A stretch of 64,000 nt of DNA, from IMG/VR virus record IMGVR_UViG_3300023084_000009, positions 1 to 64,000 of that record. One strand, given 5' to 3'. The stretch's first letter is position 1. Each line of letters begins with the position of its first letter. Shown here in pieces: positions 12,364-45,443 of this stretch. The notes beneath the pieces were generated by a model that searched no databases, was not told where the DNA came from, and was given only the letters and a program-made list of their open reading frames with translations. The translations under genes and the position numbers were made by a program. The stretch is from a virus.

Positions 12364-12387
12364 ATTCGCTATTCGCAAATAGCGAAT
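12364..12387. repeat. 24-nt palindrome ATTCGCTATT-CGCA-AATAGCGAAT, copy 1
   Basis: Perfect 10-bp inverted repeat; identical to 44938-44961. Confidence 0.95.
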
Positions 12388-43860: not shown

Positions 43861-44021
43861 TTACCAAATCCTTTCGATGTTTTCTTTTCTATTTCTGCGA
43901 GTTGCTCTTTCAACTCACGAAGTTGTGCCTTCATCTCTATGATCTTTTCTTCTGTATAGAGATGATCTTGCTTGATTAGGCGCTCAAGCAACTTGATAAG
44001 TTTTTTAGATCTACTAACCAT
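43857..44021 (-). CDS. 54-aa coiled-coil protein (not in ORF track)
   Basis: MVSRSKKLIKLLERLIKQDHLY...TSKGFGK; coupled to neighbours. Confidence 0.7.
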   Translation of the reverse strand: MVSRSKKLIKLLERLIKQDHLYTEEKIIEMKAQLRELKEQLAEIEKKTSKGFGK

Positions 44022-44191
44022 TAGTCTGGGTATCCATCGTCGTCATCAAAGATTTCATCATAGTCGTGAAGTCCTCCTTTTACATCCTCATAGTTCAAAT
44101 AACTCTGAGTATCAGAATAAACTTCTGCTTTAAGAGAATCTACAAGAAGTTCAAGATTACGGACGATGAGTTTAAGTTTTTCTTTGTCCAT
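44021..44191 (-). CDS. Conserved hypothetical protein
   Basis: MDKEKLKLIVRNLELLVDSLKAEVYSD. Confidence 0.75.
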   Translation of the reverse strand: MDKEKLKLIVRNLELLVDSLKAEVYSDTQSYLNYEDVKGGLHDYDEIFDDDDGYPD

Positions 44192-44212: not shown

Positions 44213-44241
44213 ATTATACACAAAAAAAGAGGGTTCGTCAA
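44213..44241 (-). promoter_or_regulatory. Sigma70 promoter embedded in a terminator
   Basis: TTGACG-N17-TATAAT. Confidence 0.75.
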
Positions 44242-44249
44242 GAACCCTC
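44222..44249 (-). terminator. Intrinsic terminator ending the riboswitch operon
   Basis: GAGGGTTC-TTGAC-GAACCCTC-T7. Confidence 0.9.
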
Positions 44250-44393
44250 AGATCTTAATAAGTTTTCAAACCATTCTCGCAGATGGATTCGGTAACATGA
44301 CCAATAGTTACATCCCCGATATTTGAGTTGATAACATGATGGTGGTCTGTTATCTCTATCCATATCATCGTAATGATACCGATAGTCTTCCAT
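44238..44393 (-). CDS. 51-aa peptide with YRG motif (not in ORF track)
   Basis: MEDYRYHYDDMDRDNRPPSCYQLKYRGCNYWSCYRIHLREWFENLLRSEGS; SD GAGG. Confidence 0.65.
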   Translation of the reverse strand: MEDYRYHYDDMDRDNRPPSCYQLKYRGCNYWSCYRIHLREWFENLLRSEGS

Positions 44394-44394
44394 T

Positions 44395-44490
44395 TTACTT
44401 CCTCGTTAGAAGAAGTACTTCTCCGTATAACAAGCAAATAAAAGCAACGCTAAAAAGGGTTCCGAACCCAGCTACTTGAAGTGCTTGCAT
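44395..44490 (-). CDS. 31-aa single-TM peptide
   Basis: MQALQVAGFGTLFSVAFICLLYGEVLLLTRK. Confidence 0.6.
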   Translation of the reverse strand: MQALQVAGFGTLFSVAFICLLYGEVLLLTRK

Positions 44491-44494
44491 GGTT

Positions 44495-44659
44495 TTACTT
44501 ATTGTAAGTGTGACCGCGATAGCAGAATGTTCCGTGAATTTCGTCAACACCTTGCTGACACTCATACTTAACACCACGATAGGATGTCATAGCAATTTGT
44601 GCGTCGTGCAGTGCTGATGCTTTCTGGATTTGCTTTTTGATCAGAGTGAGTGTGTTCAT
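44495..44659 (-). CDS. DUF4278 / downstream-peptide-type protein (two YRG motifs)
   Basis: MNTLTLIKKQI...SYRGVKYE...FCYRGHTYNK directly after the riboswitch. Confidence 0.8.
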   Translation of the reverse strand: MNTLTLIKKQIQKASALHDAQIAMTSYRGVKYECQQGVDEIHGTFCYRGHTYNK

Positions 44660-44705
44660 TTGTCGTACCTGAAATACTAGGGTGAGTTTTAAGTCTCCCG
44701 TTCCT

Positions 44706-44900
44706 TCAGTCGTTTGCGTCCTGTGCTTCAAAACACTTAGGGTCTGTATGTTCCATCCAATGGATGTAGATATCAGCCTTTTCAAAAGGAGTGAAGAGAG
44801 TTGTCTCATCTAATCCTTGCTTCAACCATTTCAAATCTTCACAGCGAAGATAATTCTCCACTGGGACATGACTAAAAAAGATGAGTGCTAATGATAACAT
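44706..44900 (-). CDS. 64-aa ORF nested inside the riboswitch
   Basis: ATG follows CGTTCATCCT; last codons (AQDAND-stop) are the aptamer 3' strand; hydrophobic N-terminus and two Cys. Confidence 0.7.
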   Translation of the reverse strand: MLSLALIFFSHVPVENYLRCEDLKWLKQGLDETTLFTPFEKADIYIHWMEHTDPKCFEAQDAND

Positions 44901-44937
44901 AGGATGAACGCTCCGTTCCGCGACTTACTTGCGTCCT

Positions 44938-44961
44938 ATTCGCTATTCGCAAATAGCGAAT
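44938..44961. repeat. 24-nt palindrome, copy 2
   Basis: Identical to 12364-12387. Confidence 0.95.
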
Positions 44962-44978
44962 GGGATGAACGTAAGGGT

Positions 44979-45007
44979 ATTATACCCCTAATGTGAGTAT
45001 TTATCAA
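44979..45007 (-). promoter_or_regulatory. Sigma70 promoter of the riboswitch operon (contains a late ATAAATA as well)
   Basis: TTGATA-N17-TATAAT ending 7 nt before the aptamer. Confidence 0.75.
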
Positions 45008-45015
45008 GTAAGTTC

Positions 45016-45031
45016 TGTAAAATACGATACA
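45016..45031. promoter_or_regulatory. NtcA-type box
   Basis: TGTA-AAATACGA-TACA (TGTA-N8-TACA). Confidence 0.6.
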
Positions 45032-45083
45032 AAACCTTACAGAGCAAAAATTTTGCCGGGAATTTTTCCCTCGCTCAGGGAAA

Positions 45084-45443
45084 TCACTTCCTCTTTTTGG
45101 TTTTGGGTGCTTGATATCCCCAGGTCTTTGGGTTGTGCCTACCCTCTCCGTACTTTATACCTTTAAGTCCTTCACGAAACTTATCCCAGTACATATCAAA
45201 CACATTTACTGCCTTTTGACTTCTGGTCAAGTCAAAACATGTAATACCATCAACTTCATAGGTTACAATCCTTGCATCATTGGGGACGTCCTTGGTACAC
45301 ACCTGTTCCCAAGTTCCATTTTCAACTAGGATTTCACATCCATATTTCTTTCTAGAGTTTTCCTTTTCTGTAGGTGTCCAGTTATACATAAGGTCTTCCT
45401 TTACAGGTGCCTCTTCAGACACCCTTGCCGTGTTTCTTGCCAT
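45084..45443 (-). CDS. Conserved hypothetical protein
   Basis: Clean ORF; likely start MARNTA. Confidence 0.7.
   Translation of the reverse strand: MARNTARVSEEAPVKEDLMYNWTPTEKENSRKKYGCEILVENGTWEQVCTKDVPNDARIVTYEVDGITCFDLTRSQKAVNVFDMYWDKFREGLKGIKYGEGRHNPKTWGYQAPKTKKRK

Follow-up and report, generated by a model that had tools for sequence, protein, structure and literature searches.

Introduction

In Synechocystis, the gifB gene (IF17) is controlled both by NtcA and by a type 1 glutamine riboswitch, as an initial annotation of the DNA studied here had noted, and the same control layers, together with the same protein family, recur at picocyanobacterial IF17-like genes (PMC6212724). The NtcA consensus site is GTA-N8-TAC; an activating site lies about 22 nt 5′ of the −10 hexamer, and repressing sites overlap the −35 hexamer, the −10 hexamer or the transcription start (PMC6212724). 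Here, we describe a viral locus that combines such elements on the minus strand of a 64,000 nt window, which comprises positions 1 to 64,000 of IMG/VR record IMGVR_UViG_3300023084_000009 (94,336 bases, estimated to be 44% complete); all coordinates are numbered on this window. On balance, the locus is probably a short, mobile operon carried by a T4-like cyanomyovirus, consisting of an NtcA-type box, a sigma-70 promoter, an interlocked glutamine sensor that holds a gene, and three downstream small proteins.

The closest described RNA is the glutamine-II riboswitch (Downstream-peptide motif, RF01704), which has in common with the phage leader a CGUUCA..GGxCGCA..GGAACGG core, a 5 bp ligand-stabilized pseudoknot helix and short YRG-type open reading frames (ORFs) downstream. 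Glutamine stabilizes that helix, the riboswitch is an ON switch, and it crystallizes as a strand-exchanged dimer (6QN3) that its authors judged to be a crystal form, not occurring in cells (PMC6698751, PMC7357161). In both the crystal dimer and the phage leader, each pseudoknot helix is made up of strands from two units; the exchange takes place between two molecules in the crystal, whereas covariation places it within one RNA in the phage. Tandem glutamine riboswitches also have two cores side by side and are common, with 157 doublets reported (PMC9481103). They have been treated as independent, pseudo-cooperative units, and the accessible text on them mentions neither crosswise pairing nor a gene in a stem-loop (PMC2864571, PMC9481103).

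The phage locus resembles gifB in uniting a GTA-N8-TAC box, a glutamine-riboswitch-type leader and a DUF4278-type small protein, and differs from it in several respects. In particular, it is phage-encoded, its box lies 5′ of an intact −35 hexamer whereas the gifB box overlaps the promoter core, its sensor has two interlocked cores with a gene inside, three further small genes follow, and no GS-binding part (GS, glutamine synthetase) was detected in its product (PMC6212724). Among T4-like cyanophages, glnA/glutamine riboswitch annotations and predicted NtcA sites are already in print; as far as the accessible text goes, each element was reported on its own, on the basis of Rfam or consensus scans, and the anatomy of a unit was not given (PMC9964418, PMC3037559). 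In the searchable literature, supplementary tables excluded, we found neither the union of these parts in a phage cassette, nor a crosswise double sensor, nor genes inside its hairpins. The parts are known from hosts; their phage layout was found in no searchable paper.

Two interlocked aptamer cores

At the gathering threshold, Rfam finds no riboswitch in the window's leader. Below it, positions 44974–44907 match Glutamine-II (RF01704) with 18.1 bits (gathering 33, E 0.09) and Glutamine (RF01739) with 17.4 bits (gathering 35, E 1), the low scores being due to the long inserts that the leader contains. The core motif GACGCA-N5-14-GGAACG nevertheless occurs twice on the minus strand, at 44935–44914 and 44720–44699, where 0.02 occurrences are expected, and each of the conserved glutamine-riboswitch strands CGUUCA, GGACGCA and GGAACG is present twice in the leader and near-invariant in relatives. 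A covarying hairpin between CGUUCA and GGACGCA was found for both cores, taking the form, in core 2, of closing stems around a nested gene. Two relatives (L038 and L041) have the same two cores 43 nt apart as plain hairpins, with a 12 nt hairpin insert replacing the nested gene, and the compact second core of L038 scores 36.8 bits on Rfam Glutamine, above the gathering score of 35.

The strands of the two cores vary together in a crosswise manner: the core-1 3′ strand covaries with the core-2 5′ strand, and the core-1 5′ strand with the core-2 3′ strand. Listed in the order core-1 5′, core-1 3′, core-2 5′ and core-2 3′, the strand sets are CGUUC / GCAACG / CGUUG / GGAACG (87 units, and 3 more with the first strand unseen), CGUUC / GGAACG / CGUUC / GGAACG (72 units, and 3 more with the first strand unseen), CGUUU / GCAACG / CGUUG / GAAACG (14 units) and CGUUU / GGAACG / CGUUC / GGAACG (1 unit). 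The outer variable pair is intact in all 174 units where both strands are visible (C-G in 159, U-A in 14, U-G in 1), and all 180 units have either G-C or C-G as the inner variable pair. The GCAACG strand, present in 104 of these 180 units, creates a mismatch under same-core pairing and keeps the crosswise pairing; a scan for natural variants of the core-1 3′ strand returned more than 120 contigs, all of which read GCAACG.

An alignment of 54 distinct sequences leads in the same direction. At one pair of the same-core helix, 37 cells are unpaired; in contrast, the inner helix is intact at all five positions in every one of the 54 sequences, with one pair being C-G in 37 and G-C in 17, and it is also present in the minimum-free-energy fold. 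The 5 bp CGUUC/GAACG helix that would mark membership in the riboswitch class was sought inside one aptamer, and the helices found join strands of different cores. Moreover, six loci have a gene of about 590 nt between the inner strands, and the five of them with changed strands still show matching changes. Given this covariation in relatives, the cores are interlocked and do not form a simple tandem. The covariation indicates that the crosswise double sensor is a selected fold inside one RNA and, as judged from the same comparison, the pairing is the intramolecular counterpart of the strand-exchanged glutamine-II crystal dimer.

A further helix, GUCG/CGAC, has been proposed to be shared by the two cores. 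A scan for natural variants of GUCG found none (0 stretches). The corresponding scan for CGAC variants returned 33 stretches, of which 7 are unrelated chance matches; where core 1 lies upstream, 26 of 26 read CGGC, an A-to-G change on one side only that keeps a U-G pair. Variation being confined to the CGAC side, the shared helix was dropped as an established element.

The tip of the core-1 hairpin is a 24 nt palindrome (44961–44938). An identical palindrome, for which 0 copies are expected by chance, stands 32.5 kb away at 12364–12387, between two tRNA genes. A plus-strand Rfam match to SymR (35.7 bits against 61) is this palindrome read backwards and was treated as spurious.

A protein gene nested within the sensor

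The 64-codon gene begins and ends within the core-2 fold. Its closing stem pairs UCCU-A-UGUU (44904–44896), which includes the AUG, with AGCA-C-AGGA (44727–44719), and the stop codon UGA (44708–44706) lies inside core 2. Among 80 viral contigs fetched via the 54-aa protein, the annotated phages S-RSM4, S-WAM2 and S-RIM8, and the window, the 5′ side of core 2 is visible in 78 sequences, and in 76 of them an ORF begins 10 nt after the start of CGUUC and ends within core 2 or next to it. The closing stems compensate between lineages, reading UCCCA/UGGGA, UCCU/AGGA or UCCUAUGC/GCAUAGGA (UCUCAUG/CAUGAGA). Among 30 unique forms of the 64-codon gene, all 30 are open, both other frames contain stops in all 30, and the variability at the three codon positions is 0.54, 0.32 and 0.94. 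The nested ORF is a real gene whose substitutions follow a coding pattern.

The same place is occupied in relatives by a second family of 53–56 aa, and many relatives have a third family, of 66 aa, inside the core-1 hairpin. The first two families (A and B) may be distantly related, as suggested by an hhalign probability of 54% (E 1.3e-4) that is partly forced by their RNA-constrained DAND tail; families A and C reach 14%. The profile of the 64-aa family has no relative among solved structures. As a side observation, the gene of about 590 nt was seen in the inner-helix loop of loci L112, L131, L180, L191 and L062, so that all three sensor hairpins can hold genes in some phages.

Contigs from RNA libraries also include forms in which the nested gene is absent. 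Among the contigs of X15, X16 and X18 are ones in which 44722 is joined to 44903 with 8 other letters in between, and one in which 44719 is joined to 44904 by a 27-letter palindrome-like insert. These junction contigs are relatives with a plain hairpin replacing the nested gene, present in the same samples.

The promoter and its NtcA-type box

The −35 hexamer TTGATA (45007–45002) and the −10 hexamer TATAAT (44984–44979) are kept in relatives. In the window, TGTA-N8-TACA boxes number 5 against 1.75 expected, a count that one of 100 shuffles equaled and that is therefore weak evidence by itself. The comparison of related promoters is more informative. An exact GTA-N8-TAC lies 25–33 nt 5′ of the −10 hexamer in 57 of 134 unique related promoters, with a gap of 31 nt in 33 of them, 25–26 nt in 15 and the window's own 32 nt in 4; in the remaining promoters the box is at 56–57 nt in 4, only GT-N10-AC is found in 18, and 55 have none. 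The half-sites are kept, there are 45 different N8 spacers among 61 boxes, and the enrichment upstream of related promoters exceeds 100-fold over a background of 0.294 boxes per kb. Together, these properties make the box the signature of a protein-binding site.

The initial annotation had taken the box to be an NtcA site. The motif and its enrichment are in line with this assignment, and the sequence equals the marine NtcA consensus used in PMC3037559, which makes NtcA binding plausible. The geometry does not fit: centered at about −51, the box stands some 10 bp 5′ of the canonical −41.5, and with a gap of 32 nt as against 22 nt, and a near-consensus, intact −35 hexamer between box and −10, the arrangement is neither that of an activating nor that of a repressing NtcA site. 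An alternative reading is that the motif is not an NtcA site in use but a conserved element of a mobile promoter cassette or the site of another dimeric protein, with transcription being early and constitutive. A near-consensus promoter needs no activator, gaps of 25–26 or 31–32 nt are not 22 nt, two-fifths or so of the related promoters dispense with the box, T4-like phages shuffle genes through conserved promoter/terminator motifs (PMC4122927), and the cassette sits in differing contexts. Speaking against this reading are half-sites that are kept while their spacers vary, the enrichment, the match to the marine consensus and the lack of a box at all three other strong promoters in the window. 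We regard it as credible but less probable than not.

Two further repeats lie close to the promoter. An inverted repeat surrounds the −10 hexamer (44975–44990), with arms that vary from phage to phage (GGTC..GACC, GAGT..ACTC, TGGT..ACCA; GGGG..CCCT in the window), but a fixed-register count gave 2.16 of 4 positions complementary versus 1.77 for shuffled partners (maximum 2.22), which is not convincing. Two adjoining small palindromes of 13 nt each, with A/T-rich centers, stand at 45044–45070, between the stop codon of the upstream gene and the box, and similar motifs recur 5′ of related promoters.

Organization, distribution and transcripts of the unit

From promoter to terminator, the unit spans 45031–44222 on the minus strand (Table 1), and every part is conserved in relatives. 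The initial annotation had described a self-contained phage unit with an NtcA-type box, a glutamine-riboswitch-type leader and YRG/DUF4278-like peptides, and this description is supported: the TGTA-N8-TACA box, the TTGATA-N17-TATAAT promoter, the ORFs of 64, 54 (double YRG), 31 and 51 codons and the intrinsic terminator were all found. Its account of the riboswitch holds as to the type of leader and has to be changed as to the architecture: the 64-aa ORF is not preceded by a single aptamer but enclosed by a double interlocked sensor; the second core, which overlaps the end of that ORF, was missing from the description.

Table 1. Coordinates of the features of the unit on the 64,000 nt window
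Feature	Position	Strand	Basis or remark
NtcA-type palindromic box TGTA-N8-TACA (GTA-N8-TAC at 45030–45017)	45016–45031	−	9 nt 5′ of the −35, 32 nt 5′ of the −10
Sigma-70-type promoter TTGATA-N17-TATAAT	44979–45007	−	11 of 12 consensus positions; predicted start about 44972
Whole glutamine-sensor RNA with two interlocked aptamer cores	44699–44971	−	Rfam sub-threshold matches, motif count, covariation
CGUUC, core-1 5′ pseudoknot strand (outer helix with GAACG 44703–44699)	44967–44971	−	Covariation
Core-1 hairpin (P2-1)	44934–44965	−	Two-sided changes in 4 of 5 stem pairs; 98.9% of cells paired
GUCG, candidate 5′ strand of a helix shared with CGAC 44712–44709	44921–44924	−	One-sided support
Inner helix: GAACG (core-1 3′ strand), GAG loop, CGUUC (core-2 5′ strand)	44906–44918	−	Covariation, minimum-free-energy fold
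64-codon gene nested in the core-2 hairpin, phrog_13397 (unknown-function family)	44706–44900	−	Open frames, codon pattern
3′ half of core 2, AGGACGCAAACGACUGAAGGAACG	44699–44722	−	Core motif
54-aa protein with two YRG motifs, DUF4278-like (phrog_545)	44495–44659	−	Pfam sub-cut-off match, relatives
31-aa hydrophobic one-helix peptide with conserved YGE motif	44395–44490	−	45 loci
51-aa protein with one YRG motif (..CYQLKYRG..YWSCY..H)	44238–44393	−	42 matches
Intrinsic terminator: 8 bp stem (44249–44229), 5 G-C pairs, 5 nt loop, 7-T run	44222–44249	−

Neighbors such as thyX, together with the annotated relatives S-RSM4, S-WAM2 and S-RIM8, place the window in a T4-like cyanomyovirus (Kyanoviridae). 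The region is matched by 415 phage records, 414 of which are named as Synechococcus, Cyanophage or Prochlorococcus phages, and the 54-aa protein is encoded in 579 of 595 viral-contig stretches. A comparison of the three annotated phages shows that the cassette occupies differing genomic contexts. A host origin of the unit was considered and rejected: in the genome contig collection the 64-aa ORF has no relative, the 54-aa protein has 3 loci, all in bins of metagenome-assembled genomes with unlikely labels, and a strict pattern finds the exact phage core 1 in just 6 contigs among 185,579 species genomes, all 6 being taken for phage contigs or strays in bins. A looser core pattern gave at least 120 chance matches in genome contigs, none real among the matches listed, and the scan was uninformative.

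The terminator overlaps the next early promoter (44249–44213, minus strand), whose −35 hexamer TTGACG (44241–44236) lies in the terminator loop and 3′ arm and whose −10 hexamer TATAAT is at 44218–44213; this composite terminator/promoter drives a phrog_878 gene. In having a terminator that holds the −35 of the next early promoter, and in its varied genomic neighborhoods, the cassette resembles the PeSLs known from phages of enterobacteria and vibrios (PMC4122927), a likeness of layout.

Contigs from four salt-marsh metatranscriptome runs cover pieces of the unit between 44259 and 44966, including exact pieces at 44260–44537, 44259–44386 and 44279–44493, and the same runs hold contigs of relatives with compact hairpins replacing the nested gene. 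The four runs possibly belong to one campaign, since their four study codes share a single year and habitat. The bins 44981–45168 and 43900–44040 are uncovered in these runs, which were found with this stretch and whose contigs come partly from relatives with differing flanks.

The downstream small proteins

The 54-aa protein matches PF14105 (DUF4278) with E 4e-4 and 21.1 bits, below the cut-off of 25.3, or with 23.1 bits in a six-frame search, the match being limited to the YRG region in the window's copy. DUF4278 matches 22 of 22 relatives of the protein at E ≤ 0.01, some relatives of about 85% identity bear a precomputed Pfam DUF4278 label, and both YRG motifs are invariant in the family; at E ≤ 1, the only other match is a weak one to DUF5969. 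At L094 and similar loci, the gene that follows the sensor encodes a protein that is shorter and has the YRG motif at its very start (MSTITYRGVKY..).

Directly after the DUF4278-like gene, the 31-aa peptide is encoded in 45 loci at E ≤ 1e-3, down to 45% identity; it is absent from S-RSM4, S-RIM8 and S-WAM2. Five loci with one shared sequence (L042, L044, L046, L049 and L053) have an in-frame stop at codon 5 of the gene. A terminator-like hairpin within this ORF (GGGTTCGGAACCC followed by a T run, 44457–44469, minus strand) is probably fortuitous, because relatives that retain the peptide do not conserve it at the nucleotide level. The 51-aa family has 42 matches, with 22 invariant columns among 17 sequences. 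DUF4278 matches 9 of these 17 relatives weakly (best E 0.007) and does not match the window's copy; the 51-aa and 54-aa families have only a 9-column YRG stretch in common (hhalign probability 16.8%).

Profile searches, PHROGs and solved structures gave no relative of known function for the small peptides. In particular, PHROGs hold unknown-function families for the 64-aa and 54-aa proteins only and no family for the 31-aa and 51-aa proteins, the profile of the 54-aa family has no relative among solved structures, and the Atlas gave no usable match. The initial annotation had proposed that the peptides act on GS and nitrogen assimilation or on lysis timing; no result here links them to glutamine synthetase, PII, PipX or lysis timing. 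Short IF17-like proteins are described as being without the residues needed for GS binding (PMC6212724), which makes GS inactivation a lead and not a result.

The same observations bear on the reading of the unit as a full gifB copy, in which NtcA would repress under nitrogen stress, glutamine would turn translation on, and the DUF4278-like peptide would inactivate host GS. The parallel in control layers and protein family with gifB and the picocyanobacterial IF17-like genes speaks for such a copy, but the box, unlike repressing sites, is clear of the −35, the −10 and the start, DUF4278 is matched at a sub-cut-off score and in the YRG region only, the short IF17-like proteins lack the GS-binding residues, and the exact phage core 1 is confined to those few contigs in the species genomes. 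We consider a full copy quite unlikely.

Discussion

Several observations weigh against an interlocked sensor under nitrogen control. The window's own leader is far below the Rfam gathering scores, its four strands are all consensus and hence compatible with either pairing, and the GGAG of its inner loop is not conserved. The crosswise covariation amounts to at least two changes, each of which may go back to a single event, and unit counts such as 104 of 180 are not frequencies, because the GCAACG loci were fetched by a pattern requiring that change. The box is missing from 55 of 134 related promoters and at a non-canonical distance where present, and contigs from RNA libraries may hold DNA and show neither transcript starts nor strand. 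Further, when 106 leaders were folded with the 3′ GGAACG strand free versus blocked, the accessibility of the ribosome site of the 54-aa gene stayed within 0.05 in 79, with an increase in 7 and a decrease in 20. With no consistent change in accessibility, no expression platform is identified for the downstream genes, and a local anti-ribosome-site platform for the 54-aa gene was rejected. An extended GGAA/UUUC hairpin appears in many of 48 leaders and is not found in the window's type.

The view held at the outset, that two ordinary tandem glutamine riboswitches fold separately, with core 1 controlling the 64-aa ORF and core 2 the 54-aa ORF, would suit the abundance of published doublets, the consensus strands of the window and the Rfam alignment of the second core of L038 as a self-contained aptamer, but it was dropped after the strand-set counts and the 54-sequence alignment and is very unlikely, considering the 104 units whose changes break same-core pairing and keep crosswise pairing, the pair that is unpaired in 37 of 54 sequences for the same-core helix versus 0 of 54 for the inner helix, and the matching strand changes that five loci keep across a gene of about 590 nt.

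For the interlocked double sensor, the following mechanism is proposed. A strong, host-type sigma-70 promoter would place the 5′ end of the transcript at the sensor's first strand or no more than a few bases away. Glutamine, the ligand expected from the likeness to glutamine-II, would stabilize both the inner and the outer pseudoknot helix, thereby closing the whole fold and hiding the AUG of the nested 64-codon gene; conversely, a ribosome translating the nested gene would have to unfold the sensor. The three downstream proteins (the DUF4278-like protein, the membrane peptide and the YRG peptide) would be made from the same RNA and, by analogy to host gifB and glutamine-II, both ON switches, glutamine probably favors them. 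In its most elaborate form, which we put forward as speculative and unlikely, the leader would be a single-chain strand-exchanged glutamine-II dimer with two ligand sites that acts as a two-output toggle: at high glutamine the sensor would be closed, the nested gene silent and the YRG and membrane peptides licensed; at low glutamine, ribosomes on the nested gene would keep the sensor open; NtcA and 2-oxoglutarate would set the amount of RNA; and the phage, reading both nitrogen signals of its host, would thereby pick between two small-protein programs.

Riboswitches are normally read as leaders ahead of genes. In this unit, the helix of the sensor itself encloses a protein gene, which forces translation and ligand sensing into competition on a single RNA. 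Between the two cores there is, in addition, a strand exchange hitherto known only as a crystal artifact. Hundreds of cyanophage records share the region, yet the copy in the window escapes standard Rfam scans. The unit is also a source of four conserved micro-proteins that can be tested as candidate effectors. If the control logic holds, abundant ocean viruses would read the carbon and nitrogen status of their hosts directly, which would bear on how nutrient limitation shapes infection.

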